Origin: Synechococcus sp. A15-24
GTDB lineage: Bacteria; Cyanobacteriota; Cyanobacteriia; PCC-6307; Cyanobiaceae
DNA length: 32,000 nucleotides
Direction: 5' to 3'
Assembly: GCF_014280195.1 (NCBI RefSeq)
Contig: NZ_CP047960.1
Coordinates: 1,980,001-2,012,000 of the forward strand
Made by a program: the position numbers and the translations under genes. The notes beneath the pieces were generated by a model. That model ran no database searches and was not told the origin of the DNA. It worked only from the letters and a program-made list of their open reading frames with translations. Within the stretch, counting starts at the first letter, position 1. The number at the start of each line of letters is the position of its first letter. Of the stretch, positions 10,152 to 26,597 are shown one piece after another.

Positions 10152-10406
10152 ATGGCCGAAACCGACAGCAAGGCCCCCGCCAAGGCCAAACCGGCGGCCC
10201 TGCGCAAGGGCGCCCTGGTGAAAGTGAACCGTGCGGCTTACAACGCCAGCCTTGAGGCGGCCGCCAGCGACCCCATAGCACCGGACTACATCTTTGAAGG
10301 TCCTGGGGAGCTGCTGCTGGTGAAAGGGGACTACGGCCAGGTGCGTTGGAACCGGCCCGTGCCGGATGTCTGGCTGCGGATGGATCAGTTGGAATCCTGC
10401 GGCTGA
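10152..10406 (+). CDS. ndhO: NAD(P)H-quinone oxidoreductase (NDH-1) subunit O
   Basis: [25 protein letters not shown]...[36 protein letters not shown] is the NdhO signature. The ATG is at 10152. Confidence 0.85.
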
Positions 10407-12430
10407 CTCAGGGCGCTTTCCACCATCTCCACCGCCTTGGGCACACTGTTGATCGCTGAGGCCAAACGCCAGACGGCACCCCCGAGAACCCCACTGAGAT
10501 CGGCCAGCGCAATCAGAACAGGATTGTTCTGCTCGGACCTGGCCTGATCTGCCACGGCCGATGCCGACCAGGGCATCCAGCCAGCGAGGAGCACCACGCT
10601 GCGATACGCCGCAGGCCAGGGACTCTGTGGCTGCAGCCTTTGCAGCACAGCGAATTGTTCAGCAGCGGCAGCGGGGCGGTTGGCCAGCACCGCCAGCAGC
10701 GCCAGGCTCCATCGAGCCTGCGCGTGGTCAGGGTCTGCGGCGAGCTGCTGCCGCGCCTGACGGTCCACCTGCTGGCGGTAGCTGAAATGGCCATCCAGCA
10801 TGTGCTCCACCGCCACGGCGGAAAACACCGGATCTAGACCGGCGGGCCCCGCCGCCAAGCCCTGCGCCAGGGCGGGAAACGCGTCGGCGAAACCCACCGA
10901 TACCGGTCGGTCCGAGCGGCGCCGCCAGAGGGAATAGCTGCCACCCTTCGGACGCGGGAAGCGCTGCACTTCCTCGAACACCCCGCTGCTGCGAACGGCA
11001 CGGTCGAGCTTGCGCGCTGCCTTGCGAACCGATCCCTGATCCCCCTCGGCCAGCACCACCCACTCCGCCCGGGCCAGCACAGGAGTCCGGTCCCGGCGGC
11101 TGCCCCCCAGCTGACGACCGACCAACCGACCGCCACCCCGACGGCCGTAATAGCTGACGTTGTGCTGGTTGAGATCCGGTGTGCTGGGCACCACGATCAG
11201 GGTGCGGGGCTCCACCGCGGGATCGCCACCACCGGCAGCCTGCACCAGGGCCTGCACTGGCCCCCGCGGCCGATCCTGCAAGCGCTCCAGTTGCAGGGCC
11301 CAGCCCGCTGGAACACAGGCCAGAATCCCCAGGCCCAGGAATGGGGTGGTCCAGCGAGGCCGCCACTGCTGCAACCAGAAGCCCCACTGCCACCAACCAC
11401 GGCTCAACAGCAGCAGCAACGCCGGCAGCAGAGGGGCGATGTAGCGATCGCCTTTATTCGGACTCAGGCTGGTGAGCAGCCAGGCCGCCAGCAGGTTGAT
11501 CACCAGCCAGCGCCAGCACCAGCCGTCATCACCAGCCGTCCTGGAGCGCTGAGCGCACCAGAGCAAGAGGCCGGAGACTCCCATCACCAGCAACACAACC
11601 CCCAGCTGCTCCGGTAACAACCGCGGGTACCACAACCAACTTTCCAAGCTCAGCAGGCCGGGATCTCCTTCGCGGGCCGCGGACTCAAACACCGCGCGGT
11701 TCGTGCCCCCCAGGCTTGTGATCCAGTTGTGCCTGAGCCAAGGCAGGATCAGGCATGACGCCAGCAACGGCAGCACCAAAGCTTGTCTCAACCAGGCTCC
11801 CCGGCGACGCAGGGCAATCCAGGCAGCCCAGACACCAGCCGGTGCCAGCGTCAGCAGGGCGCTTTGCTTCACAAGCACTGCTGCCAACGCTGCAACGGTT
11901 GCCCAAACAACTTGTCCCCAACGTCCACCGGTCCTGGGGTCACACCAGAGGGACATCCTCCACAGAGCCAGGGTGACCACCGCCGCCAGCGGCATTTCCA
12001 GCACGTAGTCCGTCCGCAGATCCAACAGCGCCGGAGCCAGGGCCGTCAGCAGACAAGCCAGCAGGGCCAGGCCTTCACCACGAAGCCGTAGCCCCCAACC
12101 GGCCACGGCCACCAACAGCAACCCATGCCAGAGGCTGAGGCTCCAGGCGGCATCCGCCGGGGCATCACCGCTGATGGCCATCACGGTGCCATTCACCAGA
12201 GAGGCGAGCGGTGGAATCTTGGGGGAGAGATCCAGCAGCGCCAGCCAACCGTTCCAACCGCCACTGGGCAGCAATCCCAGGGCCCGGCCATGGTCGAGGG
12301 CGCTGTTGAGGTAGTCCGCCTGATCCCAGGCGGGAACTCCGTACTGCTGCGTCCACCACAGACGATCCACCGCCGTGGCCAGCAGCCAGATCATGGCCAC
12401 CCCAAACCAAAACCGCCAGAGCCGGTTCAC
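10385..12430 (-). CDS. polytopic GT-C (family 39/ArnT-PMT-like) glycosyltransferase with soluble TPR-like C-terminal domain
   Basis: The N-terminal half has ~10 TM helices, with [14 protein letters not shown] after TM1. The start is GTG at 12430 (GTGA overlap with the upstream stop). The 3' end overlaps ndhO by 22 nt (convergent). Confidence 0.72.
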
Positions 12431-13125: not shown

Positions 13126-14094
13126 TCACAGCATCGGGTCCTGACGTGCCGGCGAGGACGCGACTCCACTGAACATCGGCGTGGACAGATACCGCTCGCC
13201 ATAACTGGCCAGCATCACCAGCACACGCCGCCCCTGCCACTCGGAGCGTTGACCAAGCCGCAGAGCCGCAGCAACGGCGGCACCGCTGCTGACGCCGCAA
13301 AGCAGACCCTCCTGCCGCGCCAGACGACGGCCCACATCCATCGCCTCCTCATCCGACACGGTCATCACCTCATCGATCAGATCACGCTCCAGCACAGCAG
13401 GGACGAATCCTGCACCGATGCCCTGAATGCGATGCGCACCAGGCGGCCTGCCCGAAAGCACAGCACTACCCGCCGGCTCCACTGCCACCACCTGCAGTTG
13501 AGGATTGCGCTGCTTCAGCAAACGGGCACAGCCTGTGATGGTGCCGCCGGTGCCGACGCCAGCCACCAGAGCGTCCAGCTGACCGTCGCAGTCGTTCCAG
13601 ATCTCCTCAGCGGTGGTGCGTTCATGCACCGCAGGATTGGCCGGATTGTCGAACTGCTGCAGCAGATAAGCCTCCGGGATCTCCTTCACCAACTCAGTGG
13701 CGAGGGCAATGGCTCCGGCCATGCCCTGTGCACCGTCGGTGAGCTGCAGCTCAGCCCCGTAGGCACGCAGCATCGAACGGCGTTCCGTGCTCATCGTGTC
13801 TGGCATGGTGAGGATGAGCCGGTAGCCCCGGGCAGCCGCGACCATGGCCAGCGCAATGCCGGTGTTGCCGCTGGTGGGCTCCACCAGCACCGTTCGCCCC
13901 GGCTGAATCGTTCCCTCCTGCTCCGCCGCCAGCACCATGGCGCTGGCGATGCGATCCTTCACCGATGCTGAGGGGTTGAAGCTTTCCAACTTGGCGATCA
14001 CTTCTGCCCCACAGCCGAACCGCAACGGCAGGCGGTTGAGACGAACCAGGGGTGTGCCTCCGATCAGGCCGGTGATATCGGAGGCAATGGCCAT
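13126..14094 (-). CDS. cysK: cysteine synthase A (O-acetylserine sulfhydrylase)
   Basis: [11 protein letters not shown]...[14 protein letters not shown] (PLP lysine motif), [12 protein letters not shown] and [10 protein letters not shown]. Confidence 0.95.
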
Positions 14095-14104
14095 GGCTGC
14101 TGAA

Positions 14105-16090
14105 TCAGAACCGGAAGACCGACTGAATCAAACCACCAAAGATGCCGAAGGTCGATGCACCGTTCTGATCCTGATCACCGCTGAGGTTGGCGGTGTAATG
14201 ACCCAGAGGACGTGACATCCAGAACACCGATGGCGTGATCTGAATGTTGTCAGTTACTTGGAAGGAGGCATAGAGCTCCACGAGGTAATTGGCATCATTC
14301 GGGGTATGTCCACCGGCAAGTTCAGTCGCGAAGTTGGGCATACCGAAGCCGACACCAAGGTCGTTGCCGACATCGAAGACGTCATCCCATTTGAGGCCGA
14401 CAAACCAGGATTGGCTGGCCACAGGGGAGTACTTGAAGAATCCCGAACCCGTGATGGCACTGCGGGCATAGCCGACAGACACGGAGGGGATCCAGCCGGT
14501 CTCCTGGGGGACCCAGTACCCGTTCAGAGCGAAGTTGTGGCTGTTGCGCTCACTGCGTTCAGCGATGTAATCACCTTGATAAAGATCTTCTTCCGTCCAG
14601 TTCCAGACATCACGCCAGCATTCGTTATTGAATGAATCATCCATCATGAAATTGGTTCCACGGCGCTGGCCAGTGCCGCACTGGCCGTAGCGATACGCGA
14701 AGGCGACACCGTATTCCTCGCCTCCCCAACCAGCCTGGACCAGGAAATTACCGCGGGAGTTGTTGGTGAACATGCCGCCAAGCACCGGATCACCATCACC
14801 ACCATCCTCAGCCACATAGTTCATCGAAACCGAGAATGCTGGATCTCCCTTGTTTTCAGTCTTCTCCTTATAAATCACACCAAACATCGCACCTGTGGCT
14901 TTGTTATAGACATTCGGCACACCCGCCAATCCGGTCCAATCAAGGATGCGGGCTCCGCCACGGTTATAGGCCGAGGGCCACATCCCCAAGCTCTCGGTGT
15001 TTCTCGCCATTGGACCAACGATGAAGATCAGCGAGTGATCGATAAGTTCGTCATTCTTCAGAGGGAAGCGATAATACAAACGCCCTAAACCAAGAATATC
15101 GTCCGTACAAGGAGCGGTGCTGAGTTTTGTCAGAGGCACACCGTCGCCTGCAAAGGCGTTGTCGCAGAAGTTGCCTGCTGTGAAACTTGCGTAGAGGAGA
15201 TCCTTTCCGGTGAATGAGGTCTTCAGGTTCAGCTTCTGCTCATAGTTGAAGGTGAAGGCCCCGTACTGACTGTTGTAGGCGCGGATACCACCTCCTGTGG
15301 CATCCTTTTTCCAGGATTTGTGATCTCGGAACTTACGAGACCGGATGTCTTTGTAGTGCTTCTCGAGCTTGGTGCCTTTGATGATCTCTGTACCGCGTTT
15401 GCCGTCTTTTTCCTTCAGCGAACCATCGCGGTTGTGAACGGAACGCCAGGCTTCACGGGTTTTCTGCCAGGAGCGACTGTTCTGCGTGGAGCCAAGGGGT
15501 GATTCACGACCATCAATTTCAACGATCTGGTGCTTCTTGTCGTAATCCCAGTAGTACTTAGAACCATCATTGGTGCCATAGGCCTTGGTGGAACCCATGG
15601 TGAAGGTGCTCTTGCCCTTCAACTTGGTGGTGGTTGAAAACTGACTGGCTTCGAGGGATCCAACGCGGTCCTCCAGCAGCATGATGCTGCCCGCCACGAA
15701 GTTGAGTTCAGATTCAAATTCCTTCAGCAGCTGCTCCACCTCTTCGGTCATCTCTGTGACACGATCAAGGCAGGAGGCCAACAATGCCGCCGCTTCATAA
15801 CGCGTGATCGGGATGTAGCCGCGGAAGCGGCCGTTGGGGTAGCCAGCCACACATCCATAGGTTTTTACCAACCTCACCAGGGCCTGATAGGCCCAGTCCG
15901 TGGGGTATACATCATTGAACTGATTAACACTGGTGACCTGCTGGAGCAGTTGCTTGGCTTGTTCAAGATCGAGGGTAGCAGAGTAATCCGAAACCGAGTC
16001 AATGTTGAGGTCGGCAGCTTGTGCCGAAAGGGGAGCAATCAAAAACGTCAGTGCTGCTGGAGCGACCAAAAGGTGCTGGAGCAGTTTCAT
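14105..16090 (-). CDS. SLH-domain / OprB-type outer-membrane porin, long paralogue (G1, 661 aa)
   Basis: The ATG at 16090 gives the signal peptide [25 protein letters not shown]. It is followed by an SLH motif [14 protein letters not shown]...YPNGRFRG...TRYEAAALL, a coiled coil, [11 protein letters not shown], a beta-barrel and a C-terminal ...SVFRF. The stop lies only 10 nt from the cysK ATG. Confidence 0.9.
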
Positions 16091-16292
16091 ACCAATCCCC
16101 TCAACTTCCTGCAGGAAGCATTTCAACAACAAACTGAAGGTACCGAACGTGGGGTGTGGTGCTAGTCCATTAACCCACCGTTAAACACAATAAAAAAGCC
16201 CCCCTGATAGGGGGGCTGATCTGTGTGAGGAACAAGTCTGAAAACCCGACCGAAGTCGGGCCGTTGAATCAGAACTTGAAGACGGTCTGAAC
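16001..16292. repeat. duplicated block: G1 head + G1 5' UTR/promoter + Yfr1-like module + last 24 nt of G2
   Basis: It aligns along its full length with 18044..18334. Identity is roughly 85-90% by eye, rising to near identity over the last ~110 nt. Confidence 0.85.
16192..16260 (-). ncRNA. Yfr1-like RNA module / double terminator in porin G2 3' UTR (copy A)
   Basis: The minus strand reads CCCGAC-UUCG-GUCGGG + UUUUCAG, then unpaired ACUUGUUCCUCACACAGAUCA, then GCCCCCC-UAUCA-GGGGGGC + U6. The second hairpin is a clear rho-independent terminator. The ncRNA interpretation rests on resemblance to the Yfr1 architecture. Confidence 0.5.
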
Positions 16293-17774
16293 GACGCCAC
16301 CCCACTGGGACGCATCATCCACACCCTGAGACTGCTCAGGAAGGTAGAAGACTGCAGGAATGACTGAGATTTTGTCAGCCACCTTCAGCTTGAGGGAAGC
16401 TTCGATAGCAAGTTCAGGGGCATCAGGGTCATCGCCCTTTTGAGAGACAACGTACTGGGGGGCACCGAATCCGACAGCAAGCTTATGGCTTGACTTTGCC
16501 AGCTTGTCCCACTGGAAACCAACCATCCAGCTAGCAAGTTCTTCAACGTCAGAACCCTCAAGGGAGGAGAATCCATAACCAGCGCTGATTGAAGGAATCA
16601 GACCAGTCTCAGAAGGCTTCCAGAAACCATTGAGAGCAAAGTTATTGGAGTAGACATCAGTGCCCTTAGCGCAACTTTGCTCCTTAAAGAAGCCAGTTCC
16701 GAAACCTGCTTTGCACTGACCGTAGCGATAGCCGAAGGCAACACCCCACTTTTTAGATCCGTAGCCAATCTGGGCAGTCGTATTAGCACGTGAGTTGGAG
16801 CCGAACATGCCACCCGCGGTGGGATCGCTGTTCTCTGCTTCTCCAGCATCGGCGACATAGTTCACGGCAACAGTGAACTTAGGGTCCCCTTTAGCTACCT
16901 TCTGCTTCCAGATCAAGCCAACCAAACCGCCGGTTTCCTTGTTGTAGACACCAGGTGTGCCCCAGTGACCACCAAACATATTGAGGGTCTTCACTTTGTA
17001 AGCCGTGGGCTTCATACCCAAGCTTTCAGTATTCCGAGCCAGAGGGCCTACAATCGCGGTCAGGCCTTTTGCAACAGGGAAGCGATAGTAGAGACGATCA
17101 ACTTCCATGACGTTTCCAGACATTCCGGAAACATCCAACTTGCGCAATCCACCGGAGAAAGCAGACCCATCCTTCATGTTGCCACCGCGCAGGCGGGTGA
17201 AGAGAAGATCCTTACCAGTGAAAGAAGTCTTCAGACCAAGACGCAAGTCATAAGAGAAACTCAAGGCGTCATAGACAGATTTGTCTGCGTCAGCCTCAGA
17301 ATTAATGGCACCTGTAACGAAGGTAGCCTTACCTTTAAGCTTGGTGGTGGTGGAAAACTGAGTGGCTTCCAGTTCGCCAACGCGAGCTTCCAGACCGTCC
17401 ACTCGGCCGCGGATCACAGCCAGCTCGGTTTCGAATTCTTTGATCAGACGACGCAGCTGGTCGGTCACCTCGGTGATGCGGTCGAGGCAAGCGTTCAGCA
17501 GGGCAGCCGCTTCATAGCGGGTCATGGCCCGGTTGCCACTGAAGGTGCCGTTGGGATAACCGGCGACGCAGCCGTAACGCTCGATCAGGTTGGCGAGTGC
17601 CTGGTAGGCCCAGTCAGTCGGGTAGACGTCGGAGAACTGGGTGATGCTGGTGACCTGCTCTTCGGATGCCGAGTAGTCGGACACACCGTTGATGTTCAGG
17701 TCTGCGGCGTTGGCGCCGGAGGCCAGGAGGCCTAGGGCGGCAGGCGCTACCAGCAGTTGCTGGAAGAGTTTCAT
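16269..17774 (-). CDS. SLH-domain / OprB-type outer-membrane porin (Som-like, G2, 501 aa)
   Basis: The ATG at 17774 gives [23 protein letters not shown]. It has an SLH motif [47 protein letters not shown], a coiled coil, a barrel and a C-terminal VVQTVFKF. Confidence 0.92.
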   Translation of the reverse strand: MKLFQQLLVAPAALGLLASGANAADLNINGVSDYSASEEQVTSITQFSDVYPTDWAYQALANLIERYGCVAGYPNGTFSGNRAMTRYEAAALLNACLDRITEVTDQLRRLIKEFETELAVIRGRVDGLEARVGELEATQFSTTTKLKGKATFVTGAINSEADADKSVYDALSFSYDLRLGLKTSFTGKDLLFTRLRGGNMKDGSAFSGGLRKLDVSGMSGNVMEVDRLYYRFPVAKGLTAIVGPLARNTESLGMKPTAYKVKTLNMFGGHWGTPGVYNKETGGLVGLIWKQKVAKGDPKFTVAVNYVADAGEAENSDPTAGGMFGSNSRANTTAQIGYGSKKWGVAFGYRYGQCKAGFGTGFFKEQSCAKGTDVYSNNFALNGFWKPSETGLIPSISAGYGFSSLEGSDVEELASWMVGFQWDKLAKSSHKLAVGFGAPQYVVSQKGDDPDAPELAIEASLKLKVADKISVIPAVFYLPEQSQGVDDASQWGGVVQTVFKF

Positions 17775-17817
17775 GAGATTCCTCACACCAAAATTGAGGG
17801 AAGTGGACAGAGAGTCC
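17338..17817. repeat. near-identical porin 5' module, copy 1 (5' UTR + signal peptide + SLH + coiled coil of G2)
   Basis: Aligned by eye to 19505..19976, I count 4 substitutions and one 8-nt indel over ~480 nt. Confidence 0.9.
17779..17788 (-). promoter_or_regulatory. SD-region site GUGUGAGGAA in G2 5' UTR, complementary to the Yfr1-type CCUCACAC motif
   Basis: The mRNA reads GGUGUGAGGAAUCUC-AUG. This is an exact 10-nt reverse complement of UUCCUCACAC at 16223..16232 and 18266..18275. Confidence 0.5.
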
Positions 17818-17884
17818 ACCAGAAAAATACTGGTGAAGGAAAAGTCTGCACAGGAGGCCGCACTGTTATGTGTCCATTACTACG

Positions 17885-17911
17885 CCTTAACCAGTTTAAG
17901 CTTAGGTTAAA
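17885..17911 (-). promoter_or_regulatory. phased TTAA-core direct repeats (Pho-box-like) upstream of G2, next to the conserved TAGTAATGGACAC element
   Basis: The minus strand reads TTTAACCT-aag-CTTAAACT-gg-TTAAGGCG-TAGTAAT. The first two TTAA cores are 11 nt apart. The same layout is found upstream of the G4 pseudogene. Confidence 0.3.
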
Positions 17912-17940
17912 TAATTAGGTTGAAGGTTGTTAGCCAAAGA

Positions 17941-17966
17941 CAACCCAGCTCACAAAAGGTGGGTTG
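17941..17966 (-). terminator. degenerate terminator hairpin after the porin remnant
   Basis: CAACCCA-(12 nt)-TGGGTTG, positionally homologous to the strong terminator at 20093..20120. It lacks a proper U-tract. Confidence 0.35.
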
Positions 17967-18002
17967 AGGAAGAAAGCACAAGTAGAGATTCTTCGTTGCT
18001 AA

Positions 18003-18132
18003 TTAGAAAATGAAGTTGGACTTCACATAAGCACCGTCAACATAATGTTGAGATCCGCAGCTTGTGCTATTTGAGACCAATCAAAAATGTCAGGGCTGCC
18101 GGTGCGACCAAAAGGTCCTGGAGAAGTTTCAT
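18003..18132 (-). pseudogene. chimeric porin remnant: G1-like 5' head (promoter, UTR, signal peptide) fused to G5-like last ~13 codons
   Basis: The ATG at 18132 gives [21 protein letters not shown] (TAG at 18067). The 3' part, in another frame, reads YVDGAYVKSNFIF* (TAA at 18003), compared with DYVQGAYVKTTFTF* in G5. The junction at ~18044-18046 is an AAT microhomology. Confidence 0.8.
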
Positions 18133-18334
18133 ACCCATCCCCTCAAATTCCTGCAGGAAGCATTACAACAACAAACTGAAGGCACCGAACTTGGGGAGTT
18201 GTGCTTGACCCCATTAACCCATTACTAAACACAATAAAAAAGCCCCCCTGACGGGGGGCTGATCTGTGTGAGGAACAAGTCTGAAAACCCGACCGAAGTC
18301 GGGTTATGAATCAGAACTTGAAGACGGTCTGAAC
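18044..18334. repeat. duplicated block, second copy (remnant head + Yfr1-like module + last 24 nt of G4)
   Basis: See 16001..16292. Confidence 0.85.
18236..18305 (-). ncRNA. Yfr1-like RNA module / double terminator in porin G4 3' UTR (copy B)
   Basis: The minus strand reads AACCCGAC-UUCG-GUCGGGUU + UUCAG, then unpaired ACUUGUUCCUCACACAGAUCA, then GCCCCCC-GUCA-GGGGGGC + U6. It is nearly identical to copy A. Confidence 0.5.
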
Positions 18335-19933
18335 TACACCGCCGAACACACCAACGGACTTGTCGTCGGGAGTCTCGAATCCGTAAGGACGAGAAAGCCA
18401 GTAAATTGCAGGGGTTACAGCAATTTTGTTGGTGACCTGGAACTTGTACCAGAGCTCCATGGCATAGTTGCCATCGGCAACAAAATCACTTTCGCCTTTG
18501 CGATCAATCTTAGTCACGAACCGTGGCTGACCAATAGCAGCTCCAAGGGCGTTCTTCTTCTGGAAAACATCATTCCAAGTAAGACCCACCATCCAAGAGG
18601 CCATCTCACGGATTTCGGTCGCATCCTCCCAGTCATCGTTGCCGTTGCTGTAGGAAGCACCAACACCCGCACTAATGGAAGGAATCATGCCTGATTCCTC
18701 AGGGCGCCAGAGGCATGGAGTGACCAGTTGTGGCTATAGGCATCAGAACGAACTTCTTTGCCGTCTTTATTTTCAACGGTGCAAGAAGTGTCGCCCTTAC
18801 CAGCGAACTCTGTACCAGTACGGAATTTAGCTCCGCACTGTCCGTAGCGATAACCAGCGGCAAGGCCCCATCTCTTGGTTCCGTAGGCAATCTGGCTGGT
18901 GATGTTCGCTTCGGAGTTATCGGTCATGAAGCCACCCGAATTGGGGTTGCTATCTTCACCCTCTCCGGAGTCAGCAATGTAGTTAGCGGCAAGAGTCCAG
19001 TAAGGATTGCCCTTTCCGGCGCTCTTCTTGTTGGTGTAGATCAGACCGAAGCCGCTGCCAGTTTCCTTGTTCCAGACGCCGGGGGTTCCCAGAGAACCAC
19101 CGAAGAAGTCGAGAACCTTCTGGCCACCCTTGGCATAAGCACTGGCCTTGTAGCCCATCATTTCGGTGTTGCGGGTCAGAGCACCGATCTGAGCCTTAAA
19201 TCCGCTGCCCAGGGGAAATCGATAGTACAAACGATCAATCTCAACAGCGTTGCCGCCAGGAGCACCAGTGTCAAGCTTGTTCAAGCCAACACCGTTGCCA
19301 TCCCAAACCGAGGCATCGCCCTGGTTGCCGACACGGAGGCGAGTGAAGAGCAAATCCTTACCAGTGAAGGACGTCTTCAGACCCAGGCGCAGGTCATAAC
19401 TGAAGGTGAAAGCGCCGTACTCAGCGTTGTAGTCATCCCTCATATTGCCAGGGTTATCACCAAGAGCTTTGGTGGCACCCATGACGAAATTCGCCTTGCC
19501 TTTCAGCTTGGTGGTGGTGGAGAACTGAGTGGCTTCCAGTTCGCCAACGCGAGCTTCCAGACCGTCCACGCGGCCGCGGATCACAGCCAGCTCGGTTTCG
19601 AATTCTTTGATCAGACGACGCAGCTGGTCGGTCACCTCGGTGATGCGGTCGAGGCAAGCGTTCAGCAGGGCAGCCGCTTCATAGCGGGTCATGGCCCGGT
19701 TGCCACTGAAGGTGCCGTTGGGGTAACCGGCGACGCAGCCGTAACGCTCGATCAGGTTGGCGAGTGCCTGGTAGGCCCAGTCAGTCGGGTAGACGTCGGA
19801 GAACTGGGTGATGCTGGTGACCTGCTCTTCGGATGCCGAGTAGTCGGACACACCGTTGATGTTCAGGTCTGCGGCGTTGGCGCCGGAGGCCTAGGGCGGC
19901 AGGCGCTACCAGCAGTTGCTGTAAGAGTTTCAT
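18311..19933 (-). pseudogene. SLH/OprB porin pseudogene (G4): two frameshifts
   Basis: The ATG at 19933 is followed by an 8-nt deletion at ~19890 relative to G2 (ccggaggccaggaggcctagg versus ccggaggcctagg). This shifts the frame inside the signal peptide. A second, 1-nt deletion at ~18710 splits the barrel into ORFs 18685..19851 and 18311..18688. The repaired reading is ...SLHA(F)WRPEESGMIPSISAG. Confidence 0.8.
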
Positions 19934-19976
19934 GAGATTCCTCACACCAAAATTGAGGGAAGTGGACAGAGAGTCC
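19505..19976. repeat. near-identical porin 5' module, copy 2 (G4 pseudogene)
   Basis: See 17338..17817. Confidence 0.9.
19938..19947 (-). promoter_or_regulatory. SD-region site GUGUGAGGAA in G4 5' UTR (same as G2)
   Basis: Identical to the G2 site and lying within the near-identical 5' module. Confidence 0.45.
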
Positions 19977-20043
19977 CTAAAAAAGATACTGGTGAAGCAA
20001 AAGCATCCACAAGGGTCCGCACAATTTTGTGTCCATTACTACA

Positions 20044-20071
20044 CTTTGAACAATTTAAAGCAAGTTTAAAG
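20044..20071 (-). promoter_or_regulatory. phased TTAA-core direct repeats (Pho-box-like) upstream of G4
   Basis: The minus strand reads CTTTAAAC-ttg-CTTTAAAT-tg-TTCAAAGT-g-TAGTAATGGACAC. The two TTAA cores are 11 nt apart. Confidence 0.3.
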
Positions 20072-20092
20072 GCCAGAGTGGCAGTTAAAGGC

Positions 20093-20120
20093 AAAAAAAA
20101 CCCACCTCATAAGAGGTGGG
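20093..20120 (-). terminator. rho-independent terminator of porin G5
   Basis: The minus strand reads CCCACCUC-UUAU-GAGGUGGG followed by U8. Confidence 0.85.
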
Positions 20121-20159
20121 TCGGAAAAGAAAGAACAAGTGGAGGTTCTTCGTTGGCGA

Positions 20160-21611
20160 TCAGAAGGTAAATGTGGTCTTCACGTAAGCACCTTGGACGT
20201 AATCACTTGAAAGATCGCCGGAATACTCATCAATGATGAAGTAAGTCGGCGTGACGGTGATGTTGTCGGTAACGGCAAACTTATAGAAGATTTCCCACAT
20301 CATGTTGTAGTCGTCTTCGATTTTAGGAGCCTGACCGATGGCTGTGCCGAATGAGTTACCTTCAATGCCGACATCAGACCACTCAAAACCGGCGTACCAG
20401 CTGGTGATCTCTTCGTCTGAATCGTCAGGGTTAGACAATGAGTAACCACCACTCACAGAAGGAATGATACCTGAATCTGCAGGTGCCCATGCTGCAGCAA
20501 TGCTGAAGCCATGACGGCTGTCACCAGCTTCAGCAGCTGCCTTGTTGGTGCCGATGGTCAGGCCAACATTTTGCGCGTAGGCATAACCAACTTGAGCCAA
20601 GAAGCTACCTTCAGCGATTTCACCTTCATAGAAAAGCTGCCAAGAAGATGTCGAACCGGTTTCAGCACGGCCAATGCCCGTACTGCTTCCATCCCATGCG
20701 ACGTAGTTGCCGCTGAGTTTGAAACCAGAGTCTCCAAGCGTATAAATACCACCCAAGCCGGCGCCGGTGCTAGCCAGGTTGTTGGTTGCCCAGGCACCGC
20801 CATAGGTGAAGAAGTCCAGCAGCAGGTCGGAGGGGTAGAAGGTTGCATAGCCGGCGTACATACCAGGGTCATCCGTCCTCACCACAGGACCAGCTGTCAC
20901 CGTCAGGTTCTCACCAACAGGGAAGGTGTAGAACAAGCGACCTATTTTGACGGTGTTACCGGAGGACATGGCGGTCTCAACAAAGGTGAGACCTTCATCC
21001 CAGACGGAGGGACCGAAGTTACCGGAACGCAGAACGGTCGTCAGCATGTCCTTACCCGTGAAGGACGTTTTCAGGGCAAGACGAAGGTCGTAGTTGAAGG
21101 TGAGTGCCTCACCCTCATCATCGTCGAAACCTTCAGCAGCACCAAAGACCCAAGCGGAGTAACCCTTCAGCTTGGTGGTGGTGGAGAACTGGGTCGCTTC
21201 AAGTTTGCCGACGCGAGCCTCGAGACCGTCGACTTTGCCGGCGATCATTGCGAGTTCTTTCTCGAACTCAGAAATAAGACTCTTGAGTTGATCGGTCACC
21301 TCGGTGACGCGATCGAGGCAGGCATTCAGCAGGGCAGCCGCTTCGTAGCGGGTCATGGCCCGGCCACCACGGAAGGTGCCGTTGGGGTAGCCGGCCACGC
21401 AGCCGTACTGATCCACCAGGTTGCTCAGAGCCTGGTAAGCCCAGTCGGTGGGATAAACGTCAGAAAACTGGGTGACGCTGGTGACCTGATCCTTCTTGGA
21501 AGAAGAGGAGTACTCAGCAACACCATTGATGTTGAGCTCGGTGGCATTGGCACCGGTGGCCAGAAGGCCAAGGGCGGCTGGAGCCACCAGCAATTGCTGG
21601 AAAAGCTTCAT
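20160..21611 (-). CDS. SLH-domain / OprB-type outer-membrane porin (Som-like, G5, 483 aa)
   Basis: It has a signal peptide [23 protein letters not shown], an SLH motif [47 protein letters not shown], a coiled coil, a barrel and a C-terminal YVKTTFTF. Confidence 0.92.
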   Translation of the reverse strand: MKLFQQLLVAPAALGLLATGANATELNINGVAEYSSSSKKDQVTSVTQFSDVYPTDWAYQALSNLVDQYGCVAGYPNGTFRGGRAMTRYEAAALLNACLDRVTEVTDQLKSLISEFEKELAMIAGKVDGLEARVGKLEATQFSTTTKLKGYSAWVFGAAEGFDDDEGEALTFNYDLRLALKTSFTGKDMLTTVLRSGNFGPSVWDEGLTFVETAMSSGNTVKIGRLFYTFPVGENLTVTAGPVVRTDDPGMYAGYATFYPSDLLLDFFTYGGAWATNNLASTGAGLGGIYTLGDSGFKLSGNYVAWDGSSTGIGRAETGSTSSWQLFYEGEIAEGSFLAQVGYAYAQNVGLTIGTNKAAAEAGDSRHGFSIAAAWAPADSGIIPSVSGGYSLSNPDDSDEEITSWYAGFEWSDVGIEGNSFGTAIGQAPKIEDDYNMMWEIFYKFAVTDNITVTPTYFIIDEYSGDLSSDYVQGAYVKTTFTF

Positions 21612-21617
21612 GGGGGA

Positions 21618-21629
21618 TCCTCACACAGA
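21618..21629 (-). promoter_or_regulatory. SD-region site UCUGUGUGAGGA in G5 5' UTR, complementary to the Yfr1-like core
   Basis: The mRNA reads UCUGUGUGAGGAUCCCCC-AUG. This is a 12-nt exact reverse complement of UCCUCACACAGA in both Yfr1-like modules. Confidence 0.5.
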
Positions 21630-21816
21630 ACATGGGCGCAACAGCGCCACCTAGATCTCATAGGGCTTTACCAAGCTTTAACCAAGCAATCCTGTGCCAG
21701 CTCCCTCAATGACTAGTAACAGGTGTCACAGAAAACGCCTAAAAGCGTTTGCTACGAACATAAAATTGATTCATGTGGGCAACCACCCACAGTGGGGACG
21801 GCTCCTTGTGCGCTCC

Positions 21817-23421
21817 ATGTCCTCTCGGGTCCTGCGCGTCGCCATTCTCTTTGCAGCCGTCCTGCTGGCGCTGCAGGCCTGGCGGTCCTGGGTGCTCCTG
21901 GCCAGTTACGACCAGGGAATCTTTCAGCAAGTGCTATGGAACTCTCTCCAGGGTCATCCGTTTGAAAGCACCCTCTCCTCGCAGCTCTCCACCAATGTGA
22001 TCCACGCCGGGGAGCTGCCCTCGGTCGACTACGAGCGGCTTGGTCAGCATTTCACCCCCACTCTCCTGCTCTGGACACCCCTTCTGGGGCTGATCGGAGG
22101 TGCCGCCCTGCCGCTGGTGCAGGTGGGACTGATCACGGCGGCTGGCCTCACATTGCATCGACTGGCCTTGGGTCTGCTGCCGGAACGCACTGCCAACTGG
22201 CTCACCTACGGCTTCTTTGCAGGTAATGCCCTTATCGGCCCCACGCTCGGGAACTACACCGACCTCTGCCAGCTGCCCCTGGCCGTGTTTGTCCTGATGC
22301 TCGGCCTGGTGGAACGTCGCCGCTGGTGGATCACTGGGGCAGCCCTATGGATCCCTTTGATCCGCGAGGACACCGGTGTGCTGCTGGTGGCCATCGGTCT
22401 GTGGCTGCTGCTGCGGCAACGGCAGCGCTGGCCGTTGGCCATGACCTTGATCGCCTGGGGTGGTGGCTGGGTGGTGATCTGCACCAACCTGCTGATGCCG
22501 CTGTTCTCCGACGACAACGCCAAGCGGTTCATGGTGGAGAACTTCGGACAGTATCTGGGGGACGAGAACAGCAGCTCAAGCCTCGGGATCGTGGGCCACG
22601 CCCTGCGCCAGCCCCTGCTGCTGCTTCAGCAATTGGTGGATCCGCCGGGTCAAACCCTGCTGTATCTGCTCGGCCACGGCCTGCCCTTTCTGTTTGTCCC
22701 TGTCATCAGCCTCGACACCTGGCTGCTGGCGGGCCCCAGTCTGCTCGGGCTGTTTCTGGCCCAGGGGGCCAACGACCCCCTCTCGATCACCATCCGCTAC
22801 ACGCTGCTGGTGGTGCCGGGATTCGCCCTTGGCGCTCTGTTCTGGTGGCAGCGTCGGCCAAAATCCAACCCTGGAGCGCGAACCCGTCTGGCCTGGGGAG
22901 CTGCTCTCAGCCTGTCTCTGCTGCTGACGGTCAGCAGCAACCCCCACCGCAGCCTGTCCTTTCTGATCCCGGACAGCATTGATCCCTGGGTGTACAGCGC
23001 CCCATGGCGTCAGTGGCACCATGGCGCCGCCGCTCGCCAGGCCCTGTCCGTCATCCCCGCCGATGGCACCGTGGCCGCCAATACACCCCTGGTGCCGCTG
23101 CTCGCCAGACGCGCCGTGCTCGTGCGTTTCCCATTCGCCACGGGCTATCTGGATCGATCCGGATCTCCCCAGCAGGTGGACTGGATCGCCGTGGATCTCG
23201 AGCAGCTCGAGCAATACGGGGTTGCTTTCAGAGGCGACTGGAAACAGCTGCGCAACGCTCGCCGCTGGCTGGCGGCCCATCGCGACAGCAATCGGGTGCA
23301 GGCCATCAACAGTGGTGTGGTGGTGCTGCAGCGCAATGGCGTTCAGCATCCCAACCTTGAAGCCGCCCTCGATCGACAGCTGGATCGACCACTCCCTGCC
23401 GACCCCCGCCGGCGCTCCTGA
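21817..23421 (+). CDS. DUF2079-family polytopic membrane protein (paralogue 1)
   Basis: The ATG at 21817 is followed by TM1 and then SYDQGIFQQVLWNSLQGHPFESTLSSQLSTNVIHAGELPSVDYERLGQHFTP. The protein has many TM helices and a soluble C-terminal ~130 aa. It is a close paralogue of 26560..28188. The family name is from memory. Confidence 0.7.
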   Translation: MSSRVLRVAILFAAVLLALQAWRSWVLLASYDQGIFQQVLWNSLQGHPFESTLSSQLSTNVIHAGELPSVDYERLGQHFTPTLLLWTPLLGLIGGAALPLVQVGLITAAGLTLHRLALGLLPERTANWLTYGFFAGNALIGPTLGNYTDLCQLPLAVFVLMLGLVERRRWWITGAALWIPLIREDTGVLLVAIGLWLLLRQRQRWPLAMTLIAWGGGWVVICTNLLMPLFSDDNAKRFMVENFGQYLGDENSSSSLGIVGHALRQPLLLLQQLVDPPGQTLLYLLGHGLPFLFVPVISLDTWLLAGPSLLGLFLAQGANDPLSITIRYTLLVVPGFALGALFWWQRRPKSNPGARTRLAWGAALSLSLLLTVSSNPHRSLSFLIPDSIDPWVYSAPWRQWHHGAAARQALSVIPADGTVAANTPLVPLLARRAVLVRFPFATGYLDRSGSPQQVDWIAVDLEQLEQYGVAFRGDWKQLRNARRWLAAHRDSNRVQAINSGVVVLQRNGVQHPNLEAALDRQLDRPLPADPRRRS

Positions 23422-23697: not shown

Positions 23698-25194
23698 TTG
23701 GCGAAGCTGCTGGATCAGCGGCGCTGGCTGATGCCACTGCTGCTGTGGCTGCTCACGCTGCTGCTCTGGCTGCCGGGTCTGGGCAACCTGCCGCTGCGCG
23801 ACTGGGATGAAGGGCGCGTGGCCACGGTGGCCCGCTCCAGCTCCAGCCTGCTGCCGATGAAATGGCAGCAGCCTTACCTCAACAAACCCCCCGGTCTTCA
23901 CGCCCCCATGGGCCAGTTGATCCGTGCCCACGGAGAGCAGGACGCCCTGGTGCGACTGCTGCCGGCCATGCTCTCCACCCTGGCGGTCCCCCTGATCGTG
24001 CTGATGCGCAGGGAGCTCGGTGGTTCCGACCGGCAACGCAGGGCCCTGCTGGCGGGGGTGGTGTTGATGACCCTGCTGCCCATGGCCCGTCACGGCCGGC
24101 TGGCGATGTTGGACGGCACGTTGGTGAGTTGCAGCCTGCTGTTGTGGTGGAGCTGGATCCGAGCCCGTCAGCATCCCCTGGTTGCTCTAAGCGCAGGGAT
24201 CGCCAGCAGTGGCGTGTTGCTGCTGAAACCACCGGCACTGCTGGGGTTGGGCCTGATCGCCCTGGTTGTGGGCGGCCGCAACAGCTGGCCGCGCTGGCGC
24301 GGCTGGATCGGCCTCAGCCTGGGACTGCTGCCCGGGCTGAGCTGGCATCTCTGGCACTGGAGTGTGCGCGGCGACGATGCGCTGCTGATGTGGGGCGGCC
24401 AGGGACTGGCCCGGATCACCAGCAGCGTCGGCGATGGCCACGGTTGGTGGACCCCATGGGTGGAGGTGCTAGAGGGTGGTTGGCCCTGGCTGCTGCTGCT
24501 GCCCATCGGTCTGTCCTGGGCCTGGCGGCAACGCCATGTCACCGCCGGGCGCTGGGAACTGGGGCTGCTCATCGGCAGTGCTGCCCTGGTGCTGCCGCTC
24601 CGCACCCAGTTGCCCTGGTACAGCCACCTGCTCTGGCCGCCTCTGGCCCTGCTCTGCGCCGAAGGGCTGGCTCAACTGCTCGACTCCGGAACGCCTCGCT
24701 GGGTGGGCCGGTGCTGGCAGGCCCTCGGCCTTGGACTGAGCCTGGCTGGATTGGGCACGCTGGTGATCCGCGAGCCAGAACTGCCGAGCCTCAGCCTGCT
24801 GCTGGCGGGGTTCGGGCTGTTGGCTGGAGGCCAAGCCATCAGTCATCCCCAGCCCCAGCGGCGACGACGCGGGCTGGCGATCCTGGTGATCGCCTGGGGC
24901 CTGGCGCTGCTTGCGCTCTGGCACAGCCGCCTCTGGCTATGGGAGCTGAATGAAAGCTGGGATCCACGGCCTGTGGCCGCTCAGGTACGGGCGCTGCCGG
25001 CCGATGCGTCCGTTTGGCTGAAGGGGCCCACTCGGCCATCCCTCGGCTGGTATGGGGGCCGAAACCTGCTGCAGTACCGCAAGAGTGAGCCACCCAAGGG
25101 GCCCTACTGGCTGGTGAGCAACAAGCCGATGCCGGGCTGCCTGCCGAGCCAGGACCCGGCCAGCGGTGAGTGGCAGCTATGGAAATGCGAATGA
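23698..25194 (+). CDS. GT-C glycosyltransferase, family 39 / ArnT-PMT-like
   Basis: LLWLPGLGNLPLRDWDEGRVATVAR places a DE motif in the first outward loop, followed by YLNKPPGLHAPMG and ~11 TM helices. The ORF is open from 23602. Likely starts are TTG at 23698 (GGAGG 10 nt upstream) or ATG at 23731. Confidence 0.72.
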   Translation: MAKLLDQRRWLMPLLLWLLTLLLWLPGLGNLPLRDWDEGRVATVARSSSSLLPMKWQQPYLNKPPGLHAPMGQLIRAHGEQDALVRLLPAMLSTLAVPLIVLMRRELGGSDRQRRALLAGVVLMTLLPMARHGRLAMLDGTLVSCSLLLWWSWIRARQHPLVALSAGIASSGVLLLKPPALLGLGLIALVVGGRNSWPRWRGWIGLSLGLLPGLSWHLWHWSVRGDDALLMWGGQGLARITSSVGDGHGWWTPWVEVLEGGWPWLLLLPIGLSWAWRQRHVTAGRWELGLLIGSAALVLPLRTQLPWYSHLLWPPLALLCAEGLAQLLDSGTPRWVGRCWQALGLGLSLAGLGTLVIREPELPSLSLLLAGFGLLAGGQAISHPQPQRRRRGLAILVIAWGLALLALWHSRLWLWELNESWDPRPVAAQVRALPADASVWLKGPTRPSLGWYGGRNLLQYRKSEPPKGPYWLVSNKPMPGCLPSQDPASGEWQLWKCE

Positions 25195-26597
25195 AACCAC
25201 CCCGCCAGCTCTGGGGTCTTGCCGTCGGTCTGGGGCTGATTGGCTGGGGCTGCAGCGCCATGCGGCATGGCCTGCTGCACAGCAACGCCTACGACCTGGG
25301 CCTGTTTGACCAGTGGGTCTGGCTGATCAGCCAGGGGCTGCCACCAATCTCCTCGATGGAGCACGTTCACGTGCTGGCGGATCACGGTGCCTGGCTGCTG
25401 TATGGCACCGGTCTGCTCTACAAGCTGTTCCCATCGGTGCAGTGGCTGCTGGCGGCCCAAGCCCTGGCCCTGAGTCTCACGGCCATCCCGATCTGGTGGC
25501 TGGCGCAGCAGGCTGGCGTCTCCAGACAGGGCTGCTGGCTGGCATGCGGACTGTGGTGGCTGCAGCCCGTCGTCTTCAACGCTCTGCTGTTCGATGTGCA
25601 CCCGGAAACGTGGGTGATGCCCGCCTTCGCCTGGGCCCTCTGGGCCGAACGGGCGGAACGCCCACGCCTGTGGTTAGCCCTGCTGCTGGTGATGCTGGGG
25701 GCCCGTGATGGGCTGGTGCTGGTACTCGGCGGCATGGGGCTCGATCTGGCATGGCGCCAGCGCTGGCGATGGAGTGCCGCCGTCAGCGGGCTGGCAGCGA
25801 GCTGGTTGCTGCTGCTGAGTCGGTGGCTCTATCCCTGGCTGCGCGATGGCGAAGGCCCCAAGGCCGCCGCTCGCATGTTCAGTCATCTCAGCGGCGGGCC
25901 GATGCAGATCCTGCAGAGCCTCGACTGGAGCGGAGGCCTTCAGTACCTGGTGCTGCTCTGCCTGCCCTGCATCTGGCTCTGGCGACGGCGATCACTGCCG
26001 ACCCTGCTGATCGCCCTTCCCCTGGTGCTGGTCAATCTGCTGTCGGCCTCCGCCAGCTACCGCACCTTGGTGCATCACTACAGCCTTCCCCTGGCGCTGG
26101 TCGCCGTGCTGGCGGCCATTGATGGAGGGTTGGCAGCTGACCGACCCCGCCATCGACTTCCCAGGAGCCTGATCTGGGCAGCAGCCTGCTGGCTGGCCCT
26201 GGCCAAACCCTTGTTCTTCACAGGGCCCTACCTGCAGCGGCTGCCGCACCTGCACTCAGCTCAGGAAGCCCTGGCCAAGGTGCATCCGAACGACGCGGTG
26301 CTCACCACGAGCTACCTGGTGCCTCACCTCAGCCAGCGCCGCCGGATCGCCTTCCCCAAAGCCGCCTTCAACAGTGAACTCAGCGACCAAACCTGGACGG
26401 TGCTGCTGCTGAACCCTATCGACCCTGGCTGGGGTTCCACCAGAAAGGTGCAACGGCGGCTGATCGATCAGGCTGAACGCCAGGACTGGCACTGCCGGGA
26501 TTGGCCCTCGGGCCTGACACTCTGCAGATCATCGGAACCTGAGCACTCTGAACGACTCCATGGCCTCGCTTCAGACCCCAGACCCCCGTTCAGCTGA
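25191..26597 (+). CDS. DUF2079-family polytopic membrane protein (paralogue 2, divergent)
   Basis: AYDLGLFDQWVWLISQGLPPISSMEHVHVLADHGAWLLYGTGLLYKLFP is the classic DUF2079 N-terminus as I remember it. The ATG at 25191 overlaps the GT39 stop (ATGA). Alternative starts are at 25170, 25179 and 25185. Confidence 0.7.
   Translation: MKPPRQLWGLAVGLGLIGWGCSAMRHGLLHSNAYDLGLFDQWVWLISQGLPPISSMEHVHVLADHGAWLLYGTGLLYKLFPSVQWLLAAQALALSLTAIPIWWLAQQAGVSRQGCWLACGLWWLQPVVFNALLFDVHPETWVMPAFAWALWAERAERPRLWLALLLVMLGARDGLVLVLGGMGLDLAWRQRWRWSAAVSGLAASWLLLLSRWLYPWLRDGEGPKAAARMFSHLSGGPMQILQSLDWSGGLQYLVLLCLPCIWLWRRRSLPTLLIALPLVLVNLLSASASYRTLVHHYSLPLALVAVLAAIDGGLAADRPRHRLPRSLIWAAACWLALAKPLFFTGPYLQRLPHLHSAQEALAKVHPNDAVLTTSYLVPHLSQRRRIAFPKAAFNSELSDQTWTVLLLNPIDPGWGSTRKVQRRLIDQAERQDWHCRDWPSGLTLCRSSEPEHSERLHGLASDPRPPFS

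Follow-up and report, generated by a model that had tools for sequence, protein, structure and literature searches.

A Yfr1-type seed in the 3′ untranslated regions of picocyanobacterial porin genes: a candidate element for feedback and cross-regulation among porin paralogues

Synechococcus sp. A15-24 carries an array of porin genes on the minus strand of a 32-kb stretch of its genome (contig NZ_CP047960.1, positions 1,980,001 to 2,012,000), and this whole stretch is called here the window. Behind the gene for a 501-aa porin, in its 3′ untranslated region (UTR), lies a module of two hairpins that flank the pyrimidine-rich word UCCUCACAC, which is also the seed of the cyanobacterial small RNA (sRNA) Yfr1, a repressor of porin synthesis. 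The locus raises the question of what the seed of a porin regulator does inside a porin mRNA. An initial annotation proposed, among other options, that the module is a Yfr1 paralogue; comparison with porin loci from about 80 species points to another answer. The module would be the local form of a conserved porin 3′ UTR element directed against ribosome-binding sites (RBSs), serving feedback and cross-regulation among porin paralogues and acting most likely in trans, an interpretation to which we give an even chance. The wider proposal, namely that porin mRNAs of Cyanobium, Vulcanococcus, freshwater and brackish Synechococcus and the marine clade of the window are bifunctional, with 3′ UTRs that use the Yfr1 seed to repress their own and paralogous porins, is put forward slightly more tentatively, as just short of an even chance.

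This interpretation draws on the porin genes as a family. The sample comprised 145 porin open reading frames from 81 loci and the window, 80 of the porin loci being taken from GTDB species representatives; 143 3′ UTRs, 131 5′ UTRs and 130 genes with both UTRs could be compared. The word CCUCACAC, whose background rate is 0.012 per 120 nt, was found in 40 of the 143 3′ UTRs in sense and in two in antisense orientation, while for CCUCAC the corresponding counts were 73 and 6; dinucleotide-preserving shuffles of the same UTRs returned only 0.7 ± 0.9 and 10.4 ± 3.1 occurrences, respectively. Compared by an unbiased k-mer screen with 698 3′ flanks of non-porin genes, the porin 3′ UTRs yielded only terminator words and the motif, CTCCTCAC being counted 28 times and TCACACAC 26 times in them and neither in the control flanks. 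The motif, with the consensus yUCCUCACACAC, is located at a median distance of 25 nt past the stop codon, precedes the T-run in 59 of the 64 UTRs that contain both, and has a predicted unpaired probability of 0.91, against 0.57 for the whole UTR. The flanks vary widely while the motif word stays; indeed, the k-mer screen, the shuffles, the context profile and the orthologue alignment all indicate that the seed is more conserved than the remaining 3′ UTR. At the other end of the genes, GUGUGAGG is present in 117 of the 131 porin 5′ UTRs and contains the Shine-Dalgarno (SD) sequence, since it ends 4-6 nt ahead of the start codon. Perfect complementarity of at least 8 nt between the 3′ and the 5′ UTR of the same gene was observed for 48 of the 130 genes, compared with 5 of 130 in the antisense control.

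The same pairing partners are visible in the window, where UCCUCACAC or its complement occurs exactly five times, against about 0.24 occurrences expected in 32 kb by simple arithmetic. Two of these matches lie in sense orientation within porin 3′ UTRs (16231-16223 and 18274-18266), and the other three are complements, GUGUGAGGA, which end 5-6 nt ahead of three porin start codons. When up to one mismatch is allowed the seed is not enriched in the 32-kb window (7 found, 7.8 expected); the signal resides in the exact copies and in their positions. The two sense copies belong to one duplicated segment of ~290 nt, which has 91% identity and runs into the start of the next gene; the second module is therefore not independent evidence, and the two modules count as one observation. 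The complementarity between the core and the porin RBSs that the initial annotation had pointed out extends over 10-12 bp: the predicted duplex of the module with the RBS of its own carrier gene comprises 11 bp (-18.4 kcal/mol) and that with the RBS of the first porin of the array is the best of all (-22.7 kcal/mol), while the RBS of the downstream 661-aa porin, GUUGAGGGGA, reaches -9.6 kcal/mol only.

A mechanism for such an element is suggested by Yfr1 itself, which pairs with the RBS of som 5′ UTRs and so represses them, the change of UCCU to AAAA abolishing the repression (PMC2796815); the PMM1121 5′ UTR of the published Yfr1 experiments, UUGUGUGAGGCAAUUUAUG, displays the same kind of site as the porin RBSs of the window. 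Because Yfr1 represses som porins at this kind of site, the porin element may be expected to pair with GUGUGAGGA and to lower translation. According to this proposal, the element would be transcribed together with the porin gene and end at the porin's terminator, presenting an exposed pyrimidine-rich seed, (U)UCCUCACAC, identical to that of Yfr1 and Yfr10 and perfectly complementary to GUGUGAGGA(A), which spans the porin SD sequence; pairing at the RBS would block ribosome binding and reduce translation in vivo. Since the regulator would be made 1:1 with the porin mRNA, negative feedback and cross-repression among porin paralogues would be expected. The element would act most likely in trans, either as a part of the mRNA or after cleavage; in the latter case, an RNase E-type cut is conceivable in the conserved single-stranded CAGAAC...AC/UU(U) stretch behind hairpin 1, which might free an sRNA of ~45-50 nt whose seed would be close to the 5′ end.

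The anatomy of the module, read on the minus strand throughout, is compatible with this proposal. The minus-strand sequence and RNAfold bear out the three parts, two hairpins and an unpaired stretch between them, that had been recognized at the outset (coordinates in Table 1); both hairpins are recovered with z = -4.6 to -4.8, and none of 200 shuffles folds equally well. In the minimum free energy fold, a weak 4+2 bp stem puts UCCUCAC into a 7-nt loop, and when the 5′ hairpin is omitted the stretch between the hairpins folds fully open. A terminator scan called hairpin 2 as an intrinsic terminator and did not call hairpin 1; the latter is probably not a terminator, since the orthologues have no U-tract behind it. 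The 5′ edge of the module is 8 nt past the porin stop codon TGA (16271-16269), so that it is placed between the stop codon and the intrinsic terminator of the mRNA, as are 3′-UTR-derived sRNAs, and this terminator is common to the porin mRNA and to any putative 3′-derived sRNA. A consensus promoter scan of the minus strand between 15900 and 18500, crude as it is, revealed no promoter-like site, and the aligned orthologues have no conserved -10 box ahead of hairpin 1; since neither feature precedes it, the module probably belongs to the transcript of the porin gene.

With syntenic loci and close relatives from metagenomes, added through exact-protein look-ups, the 3′ UTR of the carrier gene could be followed within the clade of the window, where it is alignable at protein identities between 96% and about 56%. 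The layout of the orthologues comprises hairpin 1, YCAGAAC, after which AC/UUU comes, then (U)UCCUCACAC, often a CA run, and the terminator. In the two helices 95.6% of the pairs are kept, with modest covariation, 2 pairs being changed on both sides. Conservation of the motif is likewise mostly favourable to a functional element: CCUCACAC is kept in 7 of the 9 independent aligned 3′ UTRs (the duplicate copy of the window being excluded), in addition to its enrichment over about 80 species, and one aligned 3′ UTR has CCUUACAC, which still pairs through G-U; this G-U-compatible variant is that of strain MU1642. In loci L002 (6540-6575) and L006 (6680-6700), runs of (CA)n or (CAUA)n prolong the motif, as in CCUCACACACACAUACAUACAU, and the (CA)n runs suggest replication slippage on the 3′ side of the seed.

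The relation of the module to Yfr1 was addressed with covariance models. Canonical yfr1 is located between guaB and trxA (PMC2190773), in agreement with the position given in the initial annotation, and the spacers of ten Cyanobium guaB-trxA loci, fetched as a positive control by a TrxA search that returned no locus from the clade of the window, each hold a canonical Yfr1 that scores 61.3 bits with the Rfam model. The same model (RF01116) assigned 14.8 bits (16195-16250) and 14.5 bits (18239-18293) to the two modules, against a gathering score of 38, and it fitted only core and terminator, leaving hairpin 1 unplaced. At gathering thresholds, a tRNA was the sole Rfam match in the whole window, and E-value scans of both modules returned only sub-threshold, terminator-driven matches. 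A covariance model built from ten porin 3′ UTR modules, R1, gives 65-86 bits on its own training modules, as it must by construction, and 25-46 bits on the better-scoring unseen porin 3′ UTRs, and its matches in other genera are almost exclusively porin 3′ ends; true Cyanobium Yfr1 genes score 13 bits. Since the Yfr1 model fails on the module and R1 fails on true Yfr1, the porin element and Yfr1 are separate families with a common seed, and the module is no member of the Yfr1 family. Common descent from Yfr1, which the term paralogue used at first would imply, is not supported by the covariance models.

What the element and Yfr1 have in common is the seed, UCCUCACAC being contained in the Yfr1 core ACUCCUCACAC, its open presentation between a 5′ hairpin and a terminator, and the target class, porin (som) RBSs with GUGUGAGG, which are validated Yfr1 targets in Prochlorococcus (PMC2796815) and predicted ones in Nostoc (PMC6974561). 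The module core, predicted to be open or presented in a loop, is identical to that of Yfr1 in 9 of 11 nt, with UUCCUCACAC instead of ACUCCUCACAC. Unlike Yfr1, where the 5′ hairpin adjoins the core, hairpin 1 of the module sits 13 nt off it; the module is longer (69 nt, compared with about 55-60 nt), it is flanked by two porin genes without any guaB/trxA synteny, and it lies within a porin 3′ UTR with no sign of a promoter of its own. A stretch that would tell the porin element from Yfr1 is UUCCUCACACAG plus the terminator stem. Yfr10 and "Yfr10-like" sRNAs have only the Yfr1 motif in common, with neither sequence, structure nor synteny conserved beyond it (Lambrecht et al. 2019, PMC6778093). 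The porin module resembles them in that it also carries this motif while being unrelated in its remaining sequence and in its structure, and in that the motif may occupy a hairpin loop, of which the window module shows a weak version; however, the described Yfr10 genes are free-standing, they are found upstream of yfr2 in high-light Prochlorococcus, and no link to porin 3′ UTRs has been reported for them. A Yfr10-like RNA of strain WH8102 was verified by Northern blot (PMC6778093); neither the window nor any of the porin loci fetched contains its probe target (probe CAGCCAGGGTTCGATCTCTTC), and a metagenome scan for it gave five chance matches, all inside unrelated coding sequences.

These data bear on the alternatives to a trans-acting anti-RBS element. 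An independently transcribed yfr1 paralogue, a true family member that came to lie behind a porin gene and is driven by a promoter of its own, would explain the two-hairpin layout with its open UCCUCACAC core and terminator, as well as the 9 of 11 core nucleotides identical to Yfr1; however, the scores of both covariance models, the distance between hairpin 1 and the core, the lack of guaB/trxA synteny, the absence of a promoter-like site on the minus strand and of a conserved -10 box, and the occurrence of the motif without hairpin 1 in other genera all argue against this origin, which appears very improbable. A better case can be made for action in cis, although we still hold it to be unlikely: the seed in the 3′ UTR would pair with the SD region of the same mRNA, and the closure of this loop would cap translation or stability of that mRNA. 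The carrier gene has its 11-bp perfect partner at its own RBS, the excess of porins with own 3′-5′ complementarity over the antisense control (48 against 5) would fit such a loop, and in many freshwater loci the motif is merely 9-25 nt past the stop codon. Moreover, both sites have changed in four near-identical contigs from TARA and other marine metagenomes (L087-L090; gene 644-2149, 3′ UTR 2150-2230), the RBS GAGAAC (within GGUGUGAGAAC) and the 3′ site GUUACUCACA (altered core GUUACUCACAGAG) retaining 6+3 bp with one bulged A; this is a possible compensatory pair, as a single case. Against cis action, the 5′ and 3′ sites of the porin genes compared show no gene-specific co-evolution, the mean complementarity being 8.10 nt to a gene's own 5′ UTR and 8.11 nt to those of other genomes (Wilcoxon p = 0.64), and the single suggestive cases of L087 and L017 do not generalise. 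The 5′ UTR of a paralogue at the same locus is a better partner than the own one in 18 cases and a worse one in 7, and in L001, L002, L005, L006 and L092 the carrier's own RBS, GAGAAC, mismatches the seed, whereas the site of the upstream paralogue is perfect. It is because of these three observations that trans action of the element is favoured.

The element could also be a sponge or a target in the Yfr1/Yfr10-Yfr2 network, binding Yfr2-type sRNAs, and thereby titrating them or being regulated by them, instead of porin RBSs. The targets of Yfr10 partly overlap those of Yfr1, and Yfr2, which has a 5′ motif nearly complementary to Yfr1, binds both Yfr1 and Yfr10 via this motif and relieves the repression of PMM1121 (PMC6778093); the 5′ end of the MED4 Yfr2, GUGUGUAGGAGAGG, which is the Yfr2 of another organism, nearly complements the seed as well. 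A sponge requires abundance, and porins are indeed among the most abundant picocyanobacterial transcripts and proteins (PMC5069720, PMC6091082). However, the element is porin-specific and has perfect porin-RBS partners, for which a general Yfr2 sponge would have no need, and this role is considered improbable; it should be added that the sponge and anti-RBS roles are not mutually exclusive. Comparably improbable is the absence of any RNA-RNA function, the conserved stretch being a terminator with a pyrimidine-rich or CA-repeat spacer, or else a protein site for an mRNA localisation or stability factor, and the RBS match being incidental. The decay of the core in some close orthologues, the slippage suggested by the (CA)n runs in L002 and L006, and the half of porin 3′ UTRs in which the motif is missing would fit this explanation, but it has to face the 40 observed copies against 0.7 in shuffles, with two in antisense and none in the 698 control flanks, the predicted unpaired state of the motif, and the exact complementarity between the conserved word and the word that is most conserved in the 5′ UTRs of the same gene family.

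A number of points weigh against the trans-acting anti-RBS element itself. CCUCAC is missing from about half of the porin 3′ UTRs, and the sampled sequences are phylogenetically related, so that the counts are not independent events. Within the clade of the window, the core has diverged to GUUACUCACAGAG at 91% protein identity in the four contigs L087-L090, and to CUCCCUCAAACAC in an orthologue at 78% protein identity; in the predicted fold of the window module itself, the CACA part of the seed is weakly paired. Duplex energies of own 3′/5′ UTR pairs were not separated from those of shuffles; this test is uninformative because purine-rich RBSs form duplexes with C/U-rich UTRs in any case, and the terminator cut applied in it also removed the seed of the window module, so that lengths of exact complements were used instead. 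A discrete sRNA derived from the element would be a conjecture, and partners other than porin RBSs, for instance Yfr2-type sRNAs, could use this seed as well; cyanobacteria are not known to have a conventional RNA-binding Hfq, and the rules of enterobacterial 3′-UTR sRNAs may not carry over. The distribution is also uneven. With clade labels that are rough and taken from names only, 44 of the 58 loci of Cyanobium, Vulcanococcus and other freshwater or brackish picocyanobacteria have at least one motif-bearing porin, and so do 5 of the 8 loci of the window's marine clade; the motif is found in 1 of 11 loci of subcluster-5.1-like marine Synechococcus and in neither of two Prochlorococcus loci. 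This rarity may be the reason why model marine strains never showed the element.

Three layouts of the element can be distinguished. The first, with the motif between two hairpins as in Yfr1, is specific to the clade of the window; in the second, seen in many Cyanobium, the motif lies directly ahead of the terminator; in the third, which is Yfr10-like, it occupies the 13-nt loop of a long hairpin, as does ACUCCUCACACAC in L024 (z = -7.1). In the freshwater Synechococcus/Cyanobium loci L017 (4649-4770), L023 (4647-4770) and L024 (4685-4800), the 3′ UTR of the first porin contains three hairpins, and the middle one displays ACUCCUCACACAC, with the full Yfr1 core, in its 13-nt loop on a 10-bp stem, a topology that has been published for Yfr10. 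Three of the records retrieved (L026, L039 and L078) bear the titles of metagenome-assembled genomes (MAGs) of Bifidobacterium breve, Sphingobacterium thalpophilum and Klebsiella, and carry typical picocyanobacterial porin loci with GGUGUGAGGA in the 5′ UTR; they are probably binning contamination or mislabelled public records. Cultured isolates represented in the loci include Cyanobium usitatum Tous, UHCC strains of Cyanobium gracile and Synechococcus sp. MU1642, whereas Vulcanococcus limneticus is represented by a MAG.

Comparable arrangements are known from other bacteria. OppZ and CarZ of Vibrio cholerae are autoregulatory sRNAs derived from 3′ UTRs, and CpxQ, SroC and MalH are RNase E-processed as well (review PMC9438474). 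The porin element is similar to them in that a regulator resides in the 3′ UTR, shares the terminator of the mRNA and has a conserved seed just upstream of it; its production would be 1:1 with the parental mRNA, and it is predicted to target the gene of its origin or that gene's family, porins being among the targets of MalH too. It differs in that those sRNAs depend on Hfq and RNase E, as shown experimentally, whereas for the porin element we infer processing and activity, and in that its seed duplicates the seed of a separate global sRNA. OppZ, in addition, acts through Rho, which cyanobacteria are not known to have. In Staphylococcus aureus, the icaR mRNA reportedly has in its 3′ UTR an anti-SD motif that pairs with its own 5′ UTR (Ruiz de los Mozos et al. 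2013); it is likewise a C/U-rich motif complementary to the SD region of the same mRNA, as in the carrier porin, but it is a single-gene case, while the porins show no gene-specific co-evolution and the RBSs of paralogues are equal or better partners. Post-transcriptional control of porins is exerted in enterobacteria by MicF and MicC, which are encoded by free-standing sRNA genes. A modular sRNA embedded in ompU of V. cholerae reportedly overlaps the 3′ end of this porin gene (PMC13376802); MicF/MicC and the ompU sRNA are alike to the porin element in the post-transcriptional cross-control of porins and different in their unrelated sequences and lineages. For cyanobacteria, ApcZ of Synechocystis, derived from the apcABC operon's 3′ end (PMC8136909), is a precedent for 3′-end-derived sRNAs, with another parental operon, another seed and another target (ocp).

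A Yfr1-seed element in porin 3′ UTRs was not described in the literature searched, outside which most subscription papers lay, nor is there such a family in Rfam 15; the arrangement had been taken as undescribed from the beginning, and this view can be maintained within the same bounds. Porins gate nutrient entry. In the prevailing picture, Yfr1 is a constitutive, free-standing porin regulator and the Yfr10-type RNAs are scattered extra copies of its seed. If the proposed anti-RBS role is true, porin output would be partly self-limiting and paralogues would repress one another; the "Yfr1-like" activity of the cell would depend on porin transcription, forming an mRNA-encoded loop of feedback and cross-talk inside the Yfr1/Yfr10-Yfr2 network, and a lineage-wide cyanobacterial case would be added to the few known autoregulatory 3′ UTR elements (OppZ/CarZ, icaR). 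For genome mark-up, R1 and the rule of CCUCACAC before a terminator define a concrete 3′ UTR family.

Table 1. Features of the module, its complementary sites and the porin array in the window
Feature	Coordinates	Strand	Remarks
Module	16260..16192	minus	Hairpin 1, linker, seed stretch, terminator; 69 nt long
Hairpin 1, CCCGAC-UUCG-GUCGGG (cUUCGg loop)	16260-16245	minus	From sequence, RNAfold, orthologue alignment
Linker UUUUCAG	16244-16238	minus	From sequence
Open stretch ACUUGUUCCUCACACAGAUCA	16237-16217	minus	From sequence
Seed UCCUCACAC	16231-16223	minus	9/11 nt same as Yfr1 core ACUCCUCACAC; predicted open or loop-presented
Intrinsic terminator GCCCCCC-UAUCA-GGGGGGC (hairpin 2)	16216-16198	minus	Followed by U6 at 16197-16192
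Target site GUGUGAGGA (in GGUGUGAGGAAUCUC-AUG), SD region of carrier porin	17788-17780	minus	Start codon 17774-17772
Target site GUGUGAGGA, ahead of frameshifted porin copy	19947-19939	minus	Identical site; start codon 19933-19931
Target site CUGUGUGAGGAU, ahead of first porin	21626-21618	minus	Start codon 21611-21609
First porin of array, 483 aa	21611-20160	minus	SLH + OprB domains; perfect target site
Frameshifted porin copy	19933-18311	minus	Second module behind it
Second module	18303-18236	minus	90% identical to first module
Stub of 661-aa-type porin	about 18131-18015	minus	From sequence
Porin, 501 aa, carrier of module in 3′ UTR	17774-16269	minus	SLH + OprB; "iron uptake porin" / Som type
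Downstream porin, 661 aa	16090-14105	minus	No module behind; RBS GUUGAGGGGA is a poor seed match

The minus-strand order of the array is closed, after the 661-aa porin, by a cysK-like gene and a DnaJ-domain gene. Homologues of the 501-aa porin carry the NCBI name "iron uptake porin", and the closest relatives of its locus are Synechococcus MAGs (CUG isolates) and strain MU1642, UW86 being a more distant protein match. The reading frame of the frameshifted copy (18311-19933) is disrupted at least twice, with 8 nt deleted where the signal peptide is encoded and a change of frame at ~18688. The copy still has its 5′ UTR, its target site and the 3′ module, all intact, and represents either a pseudogene or a fault of the assembly. 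The stub (18015-18131) consists of an N-terminus of ~30 codons with an in-frame stop, fused to the C-terminal "...GAYVKSNFIF*"; behind it, the first porin's 3′ UTR recurs in decayed form. This arrangement resembles what is left of a porin-module-porin unit that was duplicated. The 3′ UTR of the first porin itself (20094-20152, minus strand) is different, comprising the hairpin GAAGAAC[CUCCACUU]GUUCUUU and then a terminator (z = -5.3); this hairpin shows an anti-SD-like CUCCAC in its loop and may represent another kind of 3′ UTR element directed against RBSs.

The G+C content is 53-54% in the porin array (14000-22000) and 62-68% in both flanks, which could reflect the codon use of highly expressed genes or a foreign origin. 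A conserved word, GUAGUAAUGGACAC, occurs at 17880-17900 and 20030-20050 (minus strand), ~110-120 nt upstream of porin start codons, and GGUUAAUGGAC occurs at 16150-16175, ~70 nt upstream of the start codon of the 661-aa porin; these words may be the -10 region of porin promoters. The array is adjoined by three paralogous genes for DUF2079 membrane proteins on the plus strand (21694-23421, 25170-26597 and 26560-28188), and a PMT-family glycosyltransferase-like gene is located at 10385-12430 on the minus strand, PMT_2 genes being present at the corresponding place in the related locus L001.

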